From a virus (taxonomy: Duplodnaviria; Caudoviricetes), in IMG/VR virus record IMGVR_UViG_3300044657_000762, positions 1 through 24,292 of that record: DNA of 24,292 nucleotides. The stretch is one strand, 5' to 3'. Positions 1,700 through 24,267 of the stretch are shown one piece after another; within the stretch, counting starts at the first letter, position 1; each line of letters opens with the position of its first letter. Made by a program: the position numbers and the translations under genes. The notes under the pieces were generated by a model that was given only the letters and a program-made list of their open reading frames with translations, did not search any database and had not been told where the DNA came from.

Positions 1700-4600
1700 T
1701 CAGTATCCAGCGGCTTTAGCTGCTTTGGCAGCAGGGTCAGTAAGGTCTTTTGAAAGTCTAGCCCCGCCAACCGTGTCCGTTATGTTCCTCTGCCACTTGT
1801 CTAATTGTTTCCTAGTCAATCCAGGGACATACTTCAACGCGCCTACATACAAGTCAGAGTATTCTTTGGCGATGGCTTGAATCCTAGCGTCTTCTTTATC
1901 CTGCAAAGCTTTAGCTTCTTCGGGTTTACCCGCTGCGATGAGTTCGTCTAGGTCTCGCTTTGGAACGATGCGTTTAGCTTCGCGGACACGCCTCTCAAAA
2001 TTCTGCATCTGTCCCCGTAAAGCTCCCTCCCATTCATAGCCGTAAGTCCGAACACCCATATAGCTCATGAGTTCCTCTTCGACAGAATATTCGCGCCCGA
2101 AAGGTTTTTTCCCATCGGATAACATCCTTGGGAGTTTCCTTACAATTGTTTTAGCTATACCAGGAGAAATCGAAATACCAGCTTCGGTTGCCCTTTTTAT
2201 CATCTGATCCCGCATGGGAAGCTCCGTATTAGCAACCTTAATGCCTCTACTAGGATCATAGTTTTGTATTAAAATCTGAAGAGCTTGAACTAAAGGATGT
2301 AACCCACCAACGGTGTCTTTGAGGGAATCAGCCATCTTGGTAAGCGCATCTCCGAAAGACTCTCCCTTCATAGCGGCTTTAAAAGGAACTCCTAAAAGAG
2401 CATCAGGCAGGATGTAGGACAACGGGTTGTATGCAAACCCTTTTTCGTCAAATTTAACTACTGCCGTTGATTGATTTTCATCCCAAGGAGGTAGGAGGTT
2501 CTCGGAAATCCAGTCACCCGCTTCAGGTGTATACTCGTCGTCGTTGGACCCCAACCAACCCATCAACGCTTCCAACATGGTTCGCCCACCCGCAACCGCT
2601 GCTGAAATCAAAGCCATACCCGATACAGCTCTACGGTATCCTCTTGCCCTGTCTACTAGGTTGGCAGAGGTTATTTCCTTAGAAGCTATAGCACCTTGAT
2701 TGTAAGTATTTCGGACAAGCTCGATTTGCCATGATATAAAAGCATTCAGTAAAGACAAAGAACTTGCCTCTTTTATAGAAGGAGCGATGGTCGATGGAGT
2801 AGGAGTCGTCGCCATGGTTTTCTGAGCAGCAACTACCATAATATCCTCCAAGGTAGCATCTGGGTTCGAAGTAGCCTCCCCAATAGTTTCGACAAGGAAA
2901 GCGTTCATCTTCCCAGCAGCATCACCACCACCATAGGCTTTGGTTAAGGCTTTACCCGTGGCCTTCAAACCTTTGATGGGACTTAAAGACTTAATAGTTT
3001 CTTTATCCAACCGCTTTCCTAAACCCGACAACATACGCCTAGCGGTCAAATCTTTTAGGACATCTTTCTCTCTTTGATTTATTAGAGTCTCCTCAATATA
3101 GCGTAAATCTACATTATCGCTAAGTGCCCCATAGCGATAAGCTAAATCCTCTAGCAAAATGCTATTATCAGAGATAAACTTTGAAGGGTTCTTTAGTAAG
3201 TCAGAACCTTTTAAATTAAGAAGATCATCTTGGTCTTGTAAAGTCGGTAGGTTCTTGCCTGACTTTCTAAGCTTACGATTCTTCAAAAGCATAGTCACTG
3301 CCTTGGAATTTATAACCGTTGCATCAATCAAACCAATCCCAGCGGCGTAATTAGGCCACAATAATCTACCCTGCTTTACTTCATTTACCGCCGCCGCAAT
3401 ATACTGCGTGGAATAAGCCGCAGGATTTAGAATAACCAAATTGTATTTAGTAATACCCGCGAGCTTTTTTAGATTTCTCTTTATCCAACCCAATTCCGAA
3501 TCGATGTTTTGCCTTATGAAAAAAGATTGGAGTTCCCTAGCGTAATTTGGCGTAGTATACAGTGGTCGAAGCGACGGATACTTACGTTTACTTTGAATGC
3601 CTAGAGCAAAGTTGTCTTGAAAAATCTGCTGAGTAAATCCTTTGGATTTGTCTTCCTCATGAGATGCAATCCCAGATTCGACCATAAGCTCTGCTATTTG
3701 GTTCTGTTGCTGAAAACCCATCAACAGATTTATCTGTTTATCCAAAGTGAGTAATGTATTTGTTACTGGATCCTTTATCTCGCCCAATAATTCACGGATC
3801 GGCTTTGAAAGCTGTTTACGTTTGTATAGCAACCTAACTGGAATTCCTCGAATAGAACTAAGACCCATAGTCCACTCAAAGGTAGAGTCTCTGTCGGTCG
3901 TCATTTCCCTAGCAATCTCAACTGCCTCCTGCTCGGTTATAGGATTATCTTGATTTTTCTTCTTAGAGTTGACTGTAGACAATATATCTTTCACCGCTGC
4001 GTCTCGTATAGCAGTTGGTATAGTGTTCCAATTCCAGTCGTAAGCTTTATTGAATACCTTATAGCTCCTAGTTAGATATTCCCCTATAGCACTCTCAAAA
4101 GTAGCTTTGTCCTCCTCTGCAACTATGCCCGAATCGATCATCTTCTGACTCAGATAATCGATCATTTTTCTGGACTGATCCAAGTTCTCAACTACATCAC
4201 GGGCAAGCTGCTTGTCTGACTCTGTCAAAGCATAGTTCGCGCCACGATGGGCAAACAAACGACTTGCAAACTTGCCAAAGTCTACATTCTTAATTGCATC
4301 CTTGTCCCGTAATAACTCATCTAAAGGAGCAATGTTCCTCTGTTCTACCGGTAATTTTCTACCAGTTGAATCCACGAACACTTTAGTGAGGTTGGATTCA
4401 AAAGCGTTGACTAAAGTATCTACGCTCTTCTTTAAACCAGCGGCTTGCGTTTTAACAAAGTTAGTGGCTCGGTTAGCAGCGTCTTTAGGTTTCCCCCCAA
4501 AAAGCCGTTCTCGGAACCGATCCCCAAACGAAAACAAACTATCAACATTGAAACTAAGCTTACCTCCTTTGTAACTCAATAAAGGACGAAGTGTGGGATC

Positions 4601-16384: not shown

Positions 16385-16768
16385 TCAAAAAGGAACGTCT
16401 TGACCATTGGTTGGTTGCTGTTTCTCTGCTTTATCAGGCCAATCAATGGGCTCTATGTTTGTCACCTTCACTTTAGTTTTGGATCGCTTTTGGCCGGTTT
16501 GTTTGTCTTCCCATTCCTCTGTTACAAGCTGACCTTGTAGGTTGGTCCGTAATCCCTTCTTGAGATACTTGCCAGCAAACTCCGCGCGTGGTCCGAAAAC
16601 GCTGCATCCAATCCATGCGGTGGTTTCTTTGTCTTCTCCTTGCGCGTTCTTGAATTTCTGCCCACTTGCCAGGGTGAATTCAGCTATTGCTTTACCTCCT
16701 GGTGTGAATCTTAGTTCAGGATCTCTTTCGAGCCTTCCGCTTAATATGACGATGTTTGTATTGCTCAT
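16385..16768 (-). CDS. ssb: Single-stranded DNA-binding protein
   Basis: N.VILSGRLERDPELRFTP.G..., YLKKG...GQL..E.WEDK, and a C-terminal DVPF tail. Confidence 0.95.
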   Translation of the reverse strand: MSNTNIVILSGRLERDPELRFTPGGKAIAEFTLASGQKFKNAQGEDKETTAWIGCSVFGPRAEFAGKYLKKGLRTNLQGQLVTEEWEDKQTGQKRSKTKVKVTNIEPIDWPDKAEKQQPTNGQDVPF

Positions 16769-17055
16769 GATTCTTGAATTCTTTCTTTGATTCTTTGATA
16801 TGTCATTTTAAAGCCAGGATTAACATCCAACGCATCTGAAACCCTTTTCCGCGCATTGAACACAGAACCATGTGTGCGATTGCCGAAAAACGGCCCAATG
16901 GTTCCATCACTTAACAGGCAAAATTCACTGATAAGGTTCATTGCTGCCTGTCTTGCCACTCTTGGAAGCTCAAAATTTGAGGTGTTGAGTTCTTCGATTG
17001 TGGTAGCGAATTCTTCCGCCGTGATGGTTTTGATTTTTTCAATGATTGCTTTCAT
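16765..17055 (-). CDS. Stand-alone DnaA domain IV-like HTH protein (likely start ATG 17055, 96 aa)
   Basis: ARQAAMNL...LS...IGPFFGNRTHGSVFNARKRV matches the DnaA C-terminal signature RQ.AMYL...SL..IG..FG.RDHTTV.HA..KI. Confidence 0.85.
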   Translation of the reverse strand: MKAIIEKIKTITAEEFATTIEELNTSNFELPRVARQAAMNLISEFCLLSDGTIGPFFGNRTHGSVFNARKRVSDALDVNPGFKMTYQRIKERIQES

Positions 17056-17141
17056 ATTAATCCTTGTTTGTGTGGTTTTAAAAGAAATCAACCTACGCTT
17101 GCCTTAGCTTTGAAACTTGCTCCGGTAGCGAAAGCAAATCC

Positions 17142-20065: not shown

Positions 20066-20101
20066 AAAAACGTCGAACATTTAACCGATACAAAAACCGA
20101 A

Positions 20102-20650
20102 ATGAAAACAGAACAAAACCTAAATGAAGCGGCAGCGATTCTCGCGTGCCTACAAGGCAAACAACAACCCCCGACAAACCCCATAGTGACATGGGATGGG
20201 GTGCTTAGATTAACAAGCGCAACCCACCCCCTCGGGTCCACAGAGTTAATCCTGTTTGATGGGATGGACGGGTTTGGAGACGGCTGGAAAGAGGCGTCAC
20301 CGGAGGATGTACTGGATTGCATCCAAGACACCTGCGAGCCGTATTGGACGCAGATACAAGCGGACCTCCAGATCGAGCCTCGGCGGGACGGCAACTACTC
20401 CCTGAGCGTCCGCTCTGCTCAATACATAGCAGAGCAGGGTTTCGTGATAGCATGGGAGGATTACCATACAATCATACGCACAGTCCACGCCCATATAGGA
20501 GTCGGGGACTATGACTACAATGACACCGATGCATGGCTCGTCCTGACACCCGAACAGGTGGAGACAGAGCATTACCCTCTGGCTGTCGCCATAAACTACA
20601 CTCAATACAACAACAACGGATTAGTAGAGGAGGCATCGGAATTGTTATGA
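20102..20650 (+). CDS. Acidic hypothetical protein, 182 aa
   Basis: First gene of the plus-strand operon. D/E-rich and K-poor, with an ATGA overlap with the next gene. Confidence 0.8.
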   Translation: MKTEQNLNEAAAILACLQGKQQPPTNPIVTWDGVLRLTSATHPLGSTELILFDGMDGFGDGWKEASPEDVLDCIQDTCEPYWTQIQADLQIEPRRDGNYSLSVRSAQYIAEQGFVIAWEDYHTIIRTVHAHIGVGDYDYNDTDAWLVLTPEQVETEHYPLAVAINYTQYNNNGLVEEASELL

Positions 20651-20916
20651 AAACTGAAATAATACTATTCAATTTCGGCGAACTGGAATTACCAGTCGAG
20701 GCACTCGAAGACTGTCACCATCAAGGCCGATGCGATGATGACGTAGAATACTGGGTAGATCAGATTGACTGGGATAGTCAGACTATGAGTCCTGACCAAA
20801 TCAGGTCTGAACTGGAAGGGCATGGCGCATGGGATGACGACGAACTTGCCGATGAAGACGCTAACAGACGCCGGATTTTGTGGATTGCAGCAGGGGATTA
20901 CCAAGACTCCCAGTAA
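20647..20916 (+). CDS. Very acidic small protein, 89 aa (DNA-mimic candidate)
   Basis: ATG 20647 in an ATGA overlap. About 25 D/E versus 6 K/R by hand count. Confidence 0.8.
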   Translation: MKTEIILFNFGELELPVEALEDCHHQGRCDDDVEYWVDQIDWDSQTMSPDQIRSELEGHGAWDDDELADEDANRRRILWIAAGDYQDSQ

Positions 20917-20924
20917 CCAAACCC

Positions 20925-20944
20925 AACCCACATGCGTGGGTTTT
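20925..20944 (+). terminator. Short terminator-like hairpin
   Basis: AACCCAC-atgc-GTGGGTT-TT just after the stop at 20916. Confidence 0.5.
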
Positions 20945-20986
20945 CCTATCAGGCACTAATTAAGGTGACTGATCACGAAAACCTAT

Positions 20987-21277
20987 ATGAACCTAAAAAC
21001 AACATACACAGAGTGGCTGGATTACTGCAAACTAGCGGCGGACGAGATCCAGAGTGAGGAACAAGTATTTGAACAAGCGGCGGGATCTATGTGGCTCAAC
21101 TATGGGAGAAAATGGGAGCTGGTCTTCGCAGTCCGCGAGTGGGAGCCAGAACTATTCGACCAATCATCCTCAGAGGTAGCGGACTGGGGTCTGCAACCCA
21201 CTCCTGATGACTGTATACGCGCCATGGCACTGTCCATGACGAGCACCAAAATCGAACAAATATGGGACGCACGATGA
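20987..21277 (+). CDS. Ocr-like (T7 gp0.3-like) anti-restriction candidate, 96 aa
   Basis: Acidic and helical. DWGLQPTPDDCIRAM resembles T7 Ocr DSGLMPDTKDVIRIL (recalled sequence), and the N-terminal TY..W.D is similarly placed. Confidence 0.45.
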   Translation: MNLKTTYTEWLDYCKLAADEIQSEEQVFEQAAGSMWLNYGRKWELVFAVREWEPELFDQSSSEVADWGLQPTPDDCIRAMALSMTSTKIEQIWDAR

Positions 21278-21450
21278 AAACACGATTGAAACACCCCGGC
21301 TGGAAACCACTACCAGAACAAACCGAATGGAACCAAGCAACCCAAGCGGGTCCGCTTTGGGACCGTTACTGCAACTACGTGGACGCCATGGAGGAAATCG
21401 GCGCACCCCACGACAAGATAAAAACCTTCGACCAATGGATAAACTCATGA
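21274..21450 (+). CDS. Hypothetical protein, 58 aa
   Basis: ATGA overlaps at both ends. Ends with KTFDQWINS. Confidence 0.7.
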   Translation: MKTRLKHPGWKPLPEQTEWNQATQAGPLWDRYCNYVDAMEEIGAPHDKIKTFDQWINS

Positions 21451-21743
21451 AAACAGCAGATTACAGACGTGAAGCACATGAATACGTAAAAACACTCAAC
21501 CACTACCAAAAGCACGCACTACTCATCGAGTTGAGCAATGAGGTCGGAATCATGATCGAGTCCGAAGAGGCAAACATCCTCCTACCAGCGGAGCAAGTCC
21601 TATCTTACATAGACCTTAACCCGTTCACGATCATATGCGCCCTTGACGACCAAGAGACCGTATGCTGGCAGTCAAAGTTCGCAGAATCACCAAAACTTAA
21701 CATCAACGGTAACCTCAAAAGAGGAAGGAAGAAAAACTCATGA
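21447..21743 (+). CDS. Hypothetical protein, 98 aa
   Basis: ATG 21447 in an ATGA overlap. Confidence 0.7.
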   Translation: MKTADYRREAHEYVKTLNHYQKHALLIELSNEVGIMIESEEANILLPAEQVLSYIDLNPFTIICALDDQETVCWQSKFAESPKLNINGNLKRGRKKNS

Positions 21744-21928
21744 ACAAAACAGAAAGACAAGCGGTATCAACCGCATACGCATTGGCCCTGATGGGCGCAC
21801 AAATGGACTCCGTCAAGGATCTGAAACAGGTAGCAGCCGCAATTGCCCATAACCTGGAAACCCACATGGATTCCAACATGGCAGAGGCAGCATACAATCA
21901 GTTCACGGGGCAGGGAGATGAAAAGTAA
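21740..21928 (+). CDS. Hypothetical protein, 62 aa
   Basis: ATGA overlap and helical composition. Confidence 0.65.
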   Translation: MNKTERQAVSTAYALALMGAQMDSVKDLKQVAAAIAHNLETHMDSNMAEAAYNQFTGQGDEK

Positions 21929-22079
21929 AGTGGACAAAATTGGCTCCAGATTTGTCCAATTGACAATTGGACTGATATGCGCCTCCCCAACAGCCAAAGC
22001 TGGGAGCGTAAAGGCAAGCCTGATCGAAACAAGGACGACAAATGAAGATACTGAATTCAATTCCATTCAAGAAATTTAA
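21918..22079 (+). CDS. Possible hypothetical protein, 53 aa
   Basis: ATG 21918 overlaps the previous gene end and fills the gap in the operon. Confidence 0.4.
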   Translation: MKSKVDKIGSRFVQLTIGLICASPTAKAGSVKASLIETRTTNEDTEFNSIQEI

Positions 22080-22236
22080 AATGCCTGTGGGAAAACTCAC
22101 TGTCAAATGGGTCTCTAGCAGGAACGTGTATCAGTGTTATATAGGCGGAAGATATGTAGCCGCCGCATCAGGTGACACTAGAGAAGATGCCATTCTGGGA
22201 CTCCACAAGATTTATGAAAAACAACTACACAGTTAA
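22042..22236 (+). CDS. Hypothetical protein, 64 aa
   Basis: Co-oriented ORF filling the operon before the Mom-like gene. Confidence 0.55.
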   Translation: MKILNSIPFKKFKMPVGKLTVKWVSSRNVYQCYIGGRYVAAASGDTREDAILGLHKIYEKQLHS

Positions 22237-22837
22237 ACCTATCACTAGGATGGATTGCACCCCATACATAATGGAACGGCACTATGCAAAGAGGTTCCCT
22301 TCTGTCAGCTATGCATACGGGTTGTTTTTGAGGGGGGATTTAGTGGGATGCGTGACATTTGGATCACCCGCATGTTCACCTGTCAGGAAAGGTATAGCCG
22401 GGCAAGGAAACGCCAAGGATGTCATTGAACTAAACCGTCTATGTCTAAAAGATAACCGTAAGAATGAAGCAAGTATGCTTGTTACAAAGGCAATCAAACT
22501 ACTCCCAAAACCTAAGATCATCATCAGCTATTCTGACACAGCCCAAGGTCATCAAGGAACAGTTTACCAAGCATGTAATTTTATCTACTTGGGACTGTCA
22601 GCGAAGCGCACAGATTGGAAAATTGCAGGTATGGAACACCTCCATAACCAAACAATCATTGATGAGTTTAGAGGGGTTAAAAATAGAGGGAAAGCGGTAA
22701 GGGAAAAATATGGAGATGCATTCCAATTGGTTCCTCGTCCTCGCAAACATAGATACGTTTTACTGCACGGGTCAAAAGGGTGGAAGAAAAGAGTGATGAG
22801 CGAAATCAAATATAAAACAGAGCAATACCCAAAATGA
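22214..22837 (+). CDS. Mom-like DNA base-modifying GNAT protein (likely start ATG 22214)
   Basis: I...HY.K..P....GLF....LVG.VTFG.P, ELNRL.L...NEAS, ISYSD..QGH.GTVYQACNFIY.G and KHRY match the signature of the phage Mu Mom family. Confidence 0.8.
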   Translation: MKNNYTVKPITRMDCTPYIMERHYAKRFPSVSYAYGLFLRGDLVGCVTFGSPACSPVRKGIAGQGNAKDVIELNRLCLKDNRKNEASMLVTKAIKLLPKPKIIISYSDTAQGHQGTVYQACNFIYLGLSAKRTDWKIAGMEHLHNQTIIDEFRGVKNRGKAVREKYGDAFQLVPRPRKHRYVLLHGSKGWKKRVMSEIKYKTEQYPK

Positions 22838-23241
22838 AATCACTCATCCTATACCTCATACTCGCCACACAAGCCAAAGCTGGGATCGTCGCTCTGACGA
22901 TCCTGGCCGAGGCCAGAGGCGAAGGCCCGGATGGAATGACCGCAGTAGCAGCATGCATATACCAGCGGTCCATCAACCGGAAAATAACACCAGAGCAGGT
23001 CTGCCTTCAACGCAAGCAGTTCTCTTGTTGGAACGGCAAGACCGAAGCGGATCTGTCGCACCTACTGAAACTACCCCAAGCCAAAACAGCACTGTGGCTC
23101 GAAGCAAACCTACACAGGCTCAACCGAGCCAAAATAGGCTACGCTGACCATTACCACGCGGACTACGTCAAGCCGTATTGGGCAGACAAATCCAAAAAAA
23201 CATTTACCATAGGCAAACACATCTTCTACCGTCTTAATTGA
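22834..23241 (+). CDS. SleB-like cell wall hydrolase (Hydrolase_2) with N-terminal signal peptide
   Basis: ALTILAEARGEG..GM.AVA (catalytic Glu), QFSCWN, ADHYHA..VKPYWA and IGKHIFY. N-terminus MKSLILYLILATQAKA. Confidence 0.9.
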   Translation: MKSLILYLILATQAKAGIVALTILAEARGEGPDGMTAVAACIYQRSINRKITPEQVCLQRKQFSCWNGKTEADLSHLLKLPQAKTALWLEANLHRLNRAKIGYADHYHADYVKPYWADKSKKTFTIGKHIFYRLN

Positions 23242-23244
23242 CAG

Positions 23245-23343
23245 GTAGCGTCTGGGGGAGTGCCGGTCAGTTCGCTGACTACGACTCACGCCGAGGTTCT
23301 GAATACATCCTCCGCGAATAGCTTTGCAACCTATCCCCAGACG
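23245..23343. ncRNA. Putative structured RNA, copy 1 of a tandem pair (strand unresolved, minus favoured)
   Basis: Closing stem CGTCTGGGG/CCCCAGACG encloses three arms: GAGT..GTCAG-TTCG-CTGAC..ACTC, CGC.GAGG-var-CCTC.GCG and ATAG-CTTTGCAAC-CTAT. Confidence 0.65.
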
Positions 23344-23365
23344 ATTACATTCCTACCGATGACAT

Positions 23366-23467
23366 GTAGCGTCTGGGGGAGTGCCGGTCTCACGACTACG
23401 ACTCACGCCGAGGTTTTTCTAGCATTAGGTTCCCCTCCGCGAATGGCCTTGCAACCCATCCCCAGAC
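23366..23467. ncRNA. Putative structured RNA, copy 2 of a tandem pair
   Basis: Same scaffold 121 nt downstream. The third stem is ATGG/CCAT (compensatory versus ATAG/CTAT), and the length changes are confined to arm tips. Confidence 0.65.
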
Positions 23468-23505
23468 ACTTGCCTTCCCAAAATATATATGTTAAACAAA
23501 CCCAC

Positions 23506-23694
23506 ATGGGACGTTTAAAAAAAGAAATTACCCGAAGTGCACGAATCGGACTCCGAATCACTGAAAATCAGAAAACCTTATGGCAAGAAGCAGCAGATCA
23601 AGAAGATTTGACTCTAAGCAAGTGGATTGCAAAGACATGCGATCAGTTTATGTCGCCAGTCCATACACAATCGGACCCTGTGCGCGTAATGTAA
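23506..23694 (+). CDS. Ribbon-helix-helix DNA-binding protein, 62 aa (likely start ATG 23506)
   Basis: RSARIGLRITENQK..WQEAA....LTLSKWI matches the RHH (DUF1778/CopG-like) pattern. Confidence 0.75.
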   Translation: MGRLKKEITRSARIGLRITENQKTLWQEAADQEDLTLSKWIAKTCDQFMSPVHTQSDPVRVM

Positions 23695-23960
23695 GCACGC
23701 AGATCGACGCATTTCATAGGCTCATGGACATGGGCCTACTCCCATTCGCACCTCTCCTGACCCATTACGCCGAAATCCACCGCCAAAGACCTTGGGAGGA
23801 CTGGATCCACAACTACTGCCTACCATGGGTCAGTAAATGTGACATGGTCCTCCGACTGGAGGGACTCTCCATCGGAGGCGACATGGAGGTGAAGCAAGCT
23901 CACCGACTCAACAAACCCGTTTATTTCGGCTGGCAGGATTTGGAAGATAGTTTAGGGTAG
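23637..23960 (+). CDS. Nucleoside 2-deoxyribosyltransferase-like fold protein (DUF4406/DUF1937-like; likely start ATG 23637)
   Basis: Motifs VYVASPY, G..PFAP, CD.VLRL.G.S.G.D.E...A....KPV. Confidence 0.75.
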   Translation: MRSVYVASPYTIGPCARNVSTQIDAFHRLMDMGLLPFAPLLTHYAEIHRQRPWEDWIHNYCLPWVSKCDMVLRLEGLSIGGDMEVKQAHRLNKPVYFGWQDLEDSLG

Positions 23961-24066: not shown

Positions 24067-24267
24067 CTACACAAACCTCCTCTGCTGCTTCATAGCCTGA
24101 ATGTAAAACCACTGATCTATGACCTCCTCCTCCATGCGGTCGAGGAGATCCGGTTTCTCCCACAGGTTACCACCGTGCTCCTTCTGCCCTGCAACATACT
24201 TCAAGGTTGCCTTGTCCATGAATGCCTTCACGGCATCCTCCATCGATTGTTTTTGTTCGTTTGTCAT
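24067..24267 (-). CDS. Small all-alpha phage protein, possibly NTP-pyrophosphatase (MazG-like) superfamily, 66 aa
   Basis: KY..GQKEHGG.LW followed by EEEVID..FY (EExxD-like motif). Confidence 0.55.
   Translation of the reverse strand: MTNEQKQSMEDAVKAFMDKATLKYVAGQKEHGGNLWEKPDLLDRMEEEVIDQWFYIQAMKQQRRFV

Follow-up and report, generated by a model that had tools for sequence, protein, structure and literature searches.

The phage locus and its tandem unit

The window (the whole stretch of DNA that was analyzed, 24,292 nt) was a linear phage record with a CheckV completeness of about 49%. Its genes included those for terminase, tail, SSB, epimerase, Mom-family, cell-wall hydrolase, ribbon-helix-helix (RHH)-like, and DUF7768 proteins. 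An estuary metagenome label was found on six of the seven runs that held at least half of the region's words. Limisphaera accounted for two of the three organism-named SSB homologues, which may be a weak hint at a Verrucomicrobiota host. The unit described here was surrounded by small, variable plus-strand genes (about 20,100-23,960), with mobile inserts among them; this run of genes was likely to be an early operon. The coordinates of the unit and its neighbors are shown in Table 1.

The stop codon of the upstream hydrolase gene (23239-41) overlapped the leader of copy 1. Downstream, the start of the RHH-like gene was preceded by an A-rich leader, as at other genes of the window, and the RHH match started at residue 10 when counted from this start. 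The start listed for the DUF7768 gene was the most likely one, and it gave an overlap of 58 nt (23637-23694) with the end of the RHH-like frame. Protein searches with the RHH and DUF7768 products returned no usable viral loci, and no protein homologue of the RHH product was found. No promoter- or terminator-like site and no anti-terminator were found in or beside the unit, including the 38-nt spacer.

Table 1. Features of the tandem unit and the flanking genes (window positions)
Feature	Position	Strand	Details
SleB-like cell-wall hydrolase (Hydrolase_2), upstream neighbor	22834..23241	+	Pfam PF07486, E 4.8e-14; PHROG endolysin
Copy 1, short type	23250..23342	+	closing stem 23250-57/23335-42
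Copy 1 arm 1	23258-87	+	4 bp, 3x3 internal loop GCC/ACG, 6-bp hairpin with UUCG
Copy 1 arm 2	23289-23316	+	3 bp, C-C, 4 bp, 12-nt insert 23297-308
Copy 1 arm 3	23318-34	+	4 bp, 9-nt loop 23322-30 with TTGCAA
Spacer and leader between copies	23343..23370	+	varies among relatives
Copy 2, long type	23371..23467	+	closing stem 23371-78/23460-67
Copy 2 arm 1	23379-404	+	
Copy 2 arm 2	23406-41	+	20-nt insert 23414-33
Copy 2 arm 3	23443-59	+	loop 23447-55; ATG (23443) in the RHH-like frame
Spacer to RHH-like start	23468..23505	+	38 nt; free of indels in all 13 relatives with a contig that reached the start codon
RHH-like gene	23506..23694	+	NikA-like, E 0.004; TacA1, E 0.0066; weak, below cut-offs
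DUF7768/nucleoside 2-deoxyribosyltransferase-like gene	23637..23960	+	overlaps the RHH-like 3' end

A first-pass annotation, made from the letters of the sequence, had placed two copies of about 100 nt with a 121-nt period between the SleB-like gene and an RHH gene, and the sequence, the repeats, and the alignment all agreed with this description. The copies started at 23239 and 23360; their 5' ends were 121 nt apart and their 3' ends 125 nt apart. In a blastn comparison of the copies, the two halves matched with E values of about 2e-12 and 1e-7, and no third copy was found in the window. Folding yielded a 95-nt unit in which each copy had an 8-bp closing stem (GTCTGGGG/CCCCAGAC) and three arms, as had been claimed. 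Three further differences between the copies were likewise seen: the compensatory change from ATAG/CTAT to ATGG/CCAT, the symmetric shortening of one hairpin, and the 12-nt versus 20-nt inserts in the GAGG/CCTC arm. The tandem was not an assembly artefact because a contig from DNA run X4, which came from another study, matched 23205-23423 with 0 differences across the copy 1-copy 2 junction, and because the relative L361 carried the same short-long pair as the window.

Relatives, conservation, and the predicted fold

A stem-agnostic pattern was run over JGI metagenomes and recovered 60 loci, of which 17 were true relatives and 43 were chance matches that were dropped. All 17 relative contigs belonged to one phage lineage, and in each the unit occupied the same site, with the hydrolase gene on one side and the RHH-like gene on the other. 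One copy was present in eight loci and two copies in seven; the other two loci were cut by a contig edge. The first-pass annotation had proposed an RNA family processed from a tandem precursor, and these counts supported the family of structured units without the tandem as a requirement, given that 8 of the 17 loci were single-copy. Each of the seven two-copy relatives combined one unit with a long arm-2 insert and one with a short insert. Both orders occurred: short then long in the window and L361, and long then short in the six other pairs. Arm-1 loops and inserts were shuffled between copies, which suggested recombination in the invariant center. In addition, the contigs of seven runs included one-copy and two-copy forms, with no joints that skipped every copy. 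A circular RNA, for which a back-joint in X15/X16 was the candidate sign, was rejected; the letters of the joint were those of the spacer in long-short DNA tandems.

The element and the downstream genes formed one block that was about 95% identical in the relatives, and the hydrolase genes were 81-87% identical. In more distant phages, in which the hydrolase was 56-78% identical, the unit was absent after the hydrolase gene, and some of these phages ran straight into another RHH-like gene (loci inspected: L001-L014, L016, L017, L020, L025, and L026). Model R1 detected no unit in 80 hydrolase loci or in the 50 whole viral records that corresponded to 50 of those loci; two R1 matches among the 80 (L059 and L038, E 2-3) were another repeat array. 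The same model found nothing in 3 genomes or in 151 genomes, the latter representing the phylum of G051, and a DNA search found nothing in 401 genomes. DNA patterns in IMG/VR gave 0, 68, 17, 118 (52 of 64 parts scanned), and 41 matches, all of which were attributed to chance by nhmmer or inspection, as were all 21 matches of a pattern scan of GTDB. Blastn returned seven short chance matches in phages and one match in plasmids, with no relative among them. Thus, no relatives outside the estuarine phage lineage were found in these searches, which had no positive control outside the lineage and could have missed distant members because they depended on fixed motifs or on the shallow model R1. We found no published description of the unit's motif, with the caveats that such motifs are unsearchable in most papers and that the alignments of PMC10690425 could include it.

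The 25 complete units were aligned and reduced to 15 distinct units. Variation was rare in the core (6 of 73 sites) and extensive in the two loops (25 of 29 sites). Using genes from 11 sequences, we found that 13 of 56 four-fold sites varied in the two downstream genes and 21 of 32 in the hydrolase gene. The difference between the core and the downstream four-fold sites was significant (Fisher p 0.024), including when the 22 sites fixed by the search pattern were removed from the core (4 of 51 variable, p 0.036). Unpaired core sites alone did not differ significantly (2 of 19 variable, p 0.33). In the long insert, the last 15 nt were identical in all 10 long units, and the short insert had two forms in five units. 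The frame of the unit relative to the RHH gene was 0, 1, or 2, depending on the unit; this difference in frame excluded a coding role for the whole unit and ruled out the coding reading of the ORF at 23260-23694.

A conserved 73-nt core with freely varying, frame-changing loops pointed to a selected non-coding structure. The purifying selection on the core bore out the first-pass view of a structured non-coding phage unit with a fixed scaffold and variable arms. We conclude that the unit is real, belongs to one phage lineage, varies in copy number, and is a non-coding four-way junction under selection. Among the loop and junction bases that had been described as invariant, TACG was TATG in 3 of the 15 distinct units and GCCG was GCCT in 1 of the 15. 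The TGACA.GTAGC flank, for which invariance had also been claimed, varied in the relatives.

The RNAalifold consensus was an identical four-way fold of 27 pairs in which 99.8% of cells could pair. Folding z-scores were modest (-2.0 to -2.7 with flanks and -1.7 to -3.2 for cores). A two-sided change was observed in 1 of the 27 pairs and in one sequence, a level that 28 of 500 shuffles reached. Thus, the fold fit all of the variation and was unproven by covariation, because only one pair changed on both sides; of the homologues and covariation that had been looked for, the 17 lineage relatives were found and the covariation came down to this pair. In one X12 contig of low depth (7.4), the arm-2 insert was rewritten, one GAGG/CCTC pair was broken, and the arm-3 loop was changed to TGGCAA. 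A kissing dimer formed through the palindromic TTGCAA was considered possible and was set aside, as the palindrome was broken in this contig.

Both UUCG loops and G-U wobbles are characteristic of RNA, and here they pointed to the plus strand. UUCG arm-1 loops were present on the plus strand in 9 of the 15 units, and a GUGA loop was present on the minus strand in 1 of the 15. The G19-U34 pair (14 of the 15 units) and one C-to-U change in the closing stem could pair only on plus, and the two neighbors of the unit were plus-strand genes. Because of the UUCG loops, the wobbles, and the gene direction, we favor the plus strand as the probable working strand, although the minus folds were slightly more stable (by 1.6-6.4 kcal/mol) and carried twister-like blocks. 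The first-pass annotation had leaned to the minus strand, and this lean did not survive the loop counts and the two pair types that wobble only on plus. Its 11-bp extension of the minus-strand closing stem depended on a variable flank. The UUCG loop of copy 1, which it had counted for plus, proved to be common in the relatives.

Contigs from four metatranscriptome runs covered the unit and both flanks; strand, ends, and level are invisible in such contigs, which could derive from DNA. These contigs were no proof of expression because the flanking genes were covered too and the strand and ends were not shown. Their depth at the unit was not clearly above that of the flanks, which was a weak observation given flat contig depths.

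Known RNA families and candidate functions

In a scan of the whole window, no Rfam family reached its gathering threshold, and matches at E<=10 were limited to two lncRNA fragments and sbcD. Rfam 15 does not contain the motif, in line with the earlier statement that it was not a named family. It was also not a canonical tRNA, as had been proposed; ARAGORN found none, GTTCRA was absent, and no CCA followed the closing stem, such that the unit lacked the T-loop and 3' CCA of a tRNA or tmRNA cloverleaf.

The closest architectural parallel was the twister-sister ribozyme (RF02681). In the four-way form of this ribozyme, as described in an excerpt of PMC5660989, an internal loop lies between P1 and P2, P2-P5 form the junction, and the conserved residues of L1 and of the SL4 loop (U30-G-C-A-A34) dock. 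The unit, too, was a four-way junction of about 90 nt with variable peripheral arms, in which one arm had two short stems separated by an internal loop and the arm diagonal to it ended in a hairpin loop containing UGCAA. Its consensus fold had the twister-sister connectivity, as far as this is given in that excerpt, in the form of a circular permutation (L1 between P1 and P2, and the SL4 hairpin). In contrast, the internal loop of the unit was 3x3 (plus) or 4x4 (minus) rather than 5+6. Twister-sister cleaves at a CA in its 5+6 loop (excerpt of PMC11620745); the CA step was missing from the unit's GCC/ACG loop, and the motif was absent on both strands. The SL4 sequence G29-U30-G-C-A-A34-G35-U36-C37 was not found on either strand, because the unit had UGCAA with a different closing pair and spacing, and its 9-nt arm-3 loop was not closed like the T-loop-like SL4 with its G29-C37 pair. 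The RF02681 model gave no candidates in G000 and no match in the other Rfam scans.

Other families were compared in the same way. C4 antisense RNA of P1/P7-like phages (RF01695) resembled the unit in its phage and intergenic location, its cloverleaf of similar size, and its operon position ahead of a small regulatory gene, but none of four candidates passed E<=10 and no complementary target sites were found in the window. On the minus strand, the sbcD RNA motif (RF01757) had the best Rfam score, 17.3 bits at E 0.51 (L371 scored 11.7 bits); it shares a junction with GAGG/CCUC and GAGY/RCUC arms. However, these scores were far below the 40-bit cut-off, and on a genuine sbcD locus, R1 recovered only fragments of 28-31 nt that scored about 3 bits. 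Membership in sbcD was ruled out by this failed reciprocal test, which gave no full match. An excerpt of PMC2864571 describes the sbcD motif from Burkholderiales, with a terminator. The ncRNA of UG27 reverse transcriptases occurs in phages as arrays of structured units that differ in number and are gained or lost (excerpt of bioRxiv 10.64898/2026.09.22.753630). Those units, according to the same excerpt, are 135-167 nt, diverse in sequence, and adjacent to a reverse transcriptase, unlike the 95-nt unit; no reverse transcriptase was found among the 32 window proteins (about 49% of the genome) or in the flanks read. A loose descriptor of the HDV-like double pseudoknot (P1-P2-P3-P1.1-P4) had no plus-strand matches in the window or L373. 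It did match in L367 and L393 and on the minus strand, at positions that were not shared, and 14 of 30 shuffles matched too. The observed double change supported arm 3 rather than HDV P2, and likenesses to HDV and yybP-ykoY found no support. The unit can also be compared with type III antitoxin RNAs, with pseudo-ToxI, and with Racr decoys, which are tandem non-coding units before small genes or phage RNA decoys. The units of these systems are repeats of 28-60 nt, and no terminator, toxin, or CRISPR-repeat likeness was seen here. By these tests, the unit is not a member of the twister-sister, twister, HDV-like, tRNA, C4, sbcD, or UG27 families.

Our leading explanation, which we hold only tentatively, was that the unit is an RNA of the early transcript that cleaves itself or serves in processing. 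The unit would be transcribed with the plus-strand operon and would adopt the predicted four-way junction. The arm-3 UUGCAA loop would then dock on the arm-1 internal loop, with UGC in arm 1 able to pair with GCA in the loop, and the docked loops would build an active site as SL4 and L1 do in twister-sister. Cleavage in or near the arm-1 internal loop would separate the hydrolase gene from the RHH/DUF7768 genes in the polycistronic early transcript. The arm-1 tetraloop and the arm-2 insert would be dispensable periphery, and a second copy would supply redundancy or extra cuts. By analogy, then, the unit may work like a twister-sister ribozyme. The conserved unpaired bases lay in the arm-1 3x3 internal loop and the arm-3 9-nt loop, which were diagonal across the junction. 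Conservation of the core relative to loops and synonymous sites, the twister-sister-like connectivity, and the sufficiency of one copy are consistent with self-cleavage, and self-cleaving ribozymes near phage genes have been proposed to process polycistronic transcripts (excerpt of PMC6765202). Several observations argued against it. The plus strand had no catalytic signature of a known class; hammerhead, twister, pistol, and T-loop motifs were not found, and Rfam ribozymes had no match at E<=10. In addition, only one pair changed on both sides, and the unpaired core sites were not significantly conserved. The 15 invariant nucleotides of the long insert would be needless in a dispensable arm, and the X12 contig carried an altered loop and a broken pair. 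Complete cleavage was not seen, because contigs from RNA libraries X18 and X20 ran across the unit into both neighbors, and contigs cannot show ends and could derive from DNA. Eckert et al. reported that 10 of 10 comparable motifs failed to cleave (excerpt of PMC10085705). The more specific proposal of a new natural self-cleaving class, a third twister/twister-sister architecture with its own active site and single or tandem long/short alleles, is rather doubtful.

Some of the same data were accounted for better if host RNases excise a stable 95-nt RNA that binds a host protein in trans, as a decoy or in the manner of an antitoxin, for anti-defence. In that case, the scaffold would be the binding surface, the two inserts would provide two specificities, and duplication would raise dose or range. 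Self-cleavage explained less well why one long and one short insert stood together, in either order, in all seven two-copy loci, or why the long insert was so constant when the short one had two forms. The setting among small variable plus-strand genes with mobile inserts and a closing stem that joins both ends, as in processed small RNAs, also fit such a decoy. We nevertheless regard it as rather doubtful; neither a partner protein nor a host look-alike was found (model R1 and the GTDB scan yielded nothing beyond chance matches) and the flat RNA-library depth was a weak point against it. As a sub-case, the RNA might mimic an anticodon loop. The arm-3 loop presumably reads like a tRNA-Ala loop, and its changes fell at positions 32 and 34 of the 7-nt loop, but position 32 was G in L394, unlike in tRNA, and ARAGORN predicted no tRNA. 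Control in cis is an unlikelier account, according to which a leader sets the translation or stability of the RHH/DUF7768 message by hiding the arm-3 ATG (23443) or by blocking exonucleases, and extra copies are passive duplicates. This ATG in the last copy was in the RHH-like frame, with no stop or indel, in the window and in 13 of 13 relatives that reached the start; the three-state loop position was the third base of an Ala codon, and the sole unit without an ATG was a first copy. Co-inheritance of the element with the downstream genes rather than with the hydrolase pointed the same way. However, the 21-codon extension held five amino-acid-changing variants, the start at 23506 had the usual A-rich leader and an RHH match that begins at residue 10, first copies retained the same core at a distance from the start, and no terminator or anti-terminator was present.

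A role at the DNA level is distinctly unlikely. The unit could act as a single-strand fold or a protein-binding site, or it could be a nearly neutral local duplicate of a GC-rich hairpin kept by linkage or gene conversion. The narrow distribution, shallow divergence, single compensatory pair, and modest z-scores would suit this, as would the more distant phages in which the same hydrolase gene runs straight to the next gene. The core was conserved beyond synonymous sites, though, while loops within the same 100 nt turned over completely, and the RNA features and the lack of a zero-copy joint in seven runs likewise argued against this reading. We consider it quite improbable that minus is the working strand and that the unit is related to type-P3 twister (RF03154) and has been remodelled or has decayed. 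Block-B-like and block-C-like sequences, defined from the twister consensus in the excerpted supplement of PMC10085705, occurred in this order in all 15 units, and a block-A-like UAAUGC followed in the 10 long units, as in type P3. In a background of 1,937,308 nt of unrelated loci, B and C co-occurred six times and all three blocks never, using a pattern that was relaxed after the sequence was seen. The greater stability of the minus folds was also in its favor. Against it, pseudoknot 1 was fully paired in 0 of 10 units and pseudoknot 2 had a G-G mismatch in 10 of 10 (two of three pairs). Moreover, only 5 nt remained for P1, which was absent, the five short units had no block A, the GA of block C paired with the invariant CUC in the consensus fold, and the unit had an extra arm with an internal loop. 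RF03154 and the other twister models gave no candidate, and the UUCG loops and wobbles favored plus. The reading that we think least probable, and very much so, was the C4/CI-type antisense regulator or guide-arm scaffold that the first-pass annotation had offered, which would pair with phage or host RNA. It had the cloverleaf shape, phage location, and variable exposed arms in its favor, together with an 8-nt complement of the long insert (20989-20996) at the start codon of ORF 20987 that was kept or G-U-compatible in seven of the nine relatives with the region. In a duplex test, this complement was at chance level. The longest complements in the window were 8-9 nt, and the best duplex energies, -18.7 and -11.7, each lay inside the range of 8 shuffled inserts, in a search that covered about 49% of the genome. 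No target rose above the shuffled level in the window, Rfam C4 had no match at E<=10, and the window encoded no nuclease, recombinase, or reverse transcriptase.

The absence from Rfam 15 and the selection on a compact four-way fold made the unit a new candidate phage RNA family, one with a narrow distribution and a single covarying pair. The known natural self-cleaving ribozymes fall into few classes, about ten. If the self-cleavage explanation were true, a new class would inform both RNA catalysis and the question of why ribozymes are found in phages; if the decoy were true, the unit would represent RNA counter-defence with two exchangeable payloads.

Other features of the window and its relatives

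The Mom-family gene was located inside an insert of about 860 nt (22010-22872) that had an imperfect direct repeat (about 18-20 nt) on either side. This insert split the 5' end of the hydrolase gene and provided a new N-terminus. None of the 17 loci with the element had Mom, not even L361 at 99% identity, and neither did any of the 80 hydrolase loci. L380 carried another insert at nearly the same site (2603-3298), with a 231-aa ORF that showed an HNH-like motif by eye, and this insert was likewise followed by a recoded hydrolase N-terminus. In L389, a truncated hydrolase gene and a 192-aa gene preceded the element. The 5' end of the hydrolase gene appears to be a hot spot at which mobile genes insert. 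In L347, the hydrolase frame was split about 740 nt into the reversed locus, with an apparent short duplication around the GPDGMT motif.

In the more distant phages, a run of short repeats composed of ATAAG and CTAAT words was present about 2 kb upstream of the hydrolase gene (L059, 815-1150) and was also seen in L036, L038, L039, L041, L042, L047, and L051. They might serve as iterons of an origin or as an array that binds protein. In the window, a minus-strand region adjoining SSB (16765-17091) encoded a DnaA C-terminal helix-turn-helix domain (PF08299, E 5.7e-8). A 66-aa minus-strand ORF (24067-24267) was conserved in relatives and had no Pfam or PHROG match; we take it to resemble MazG-like nucleotide hydrolases. 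Upstream of this ORF was a 693-aa ORF that appeared primase-like by eye.
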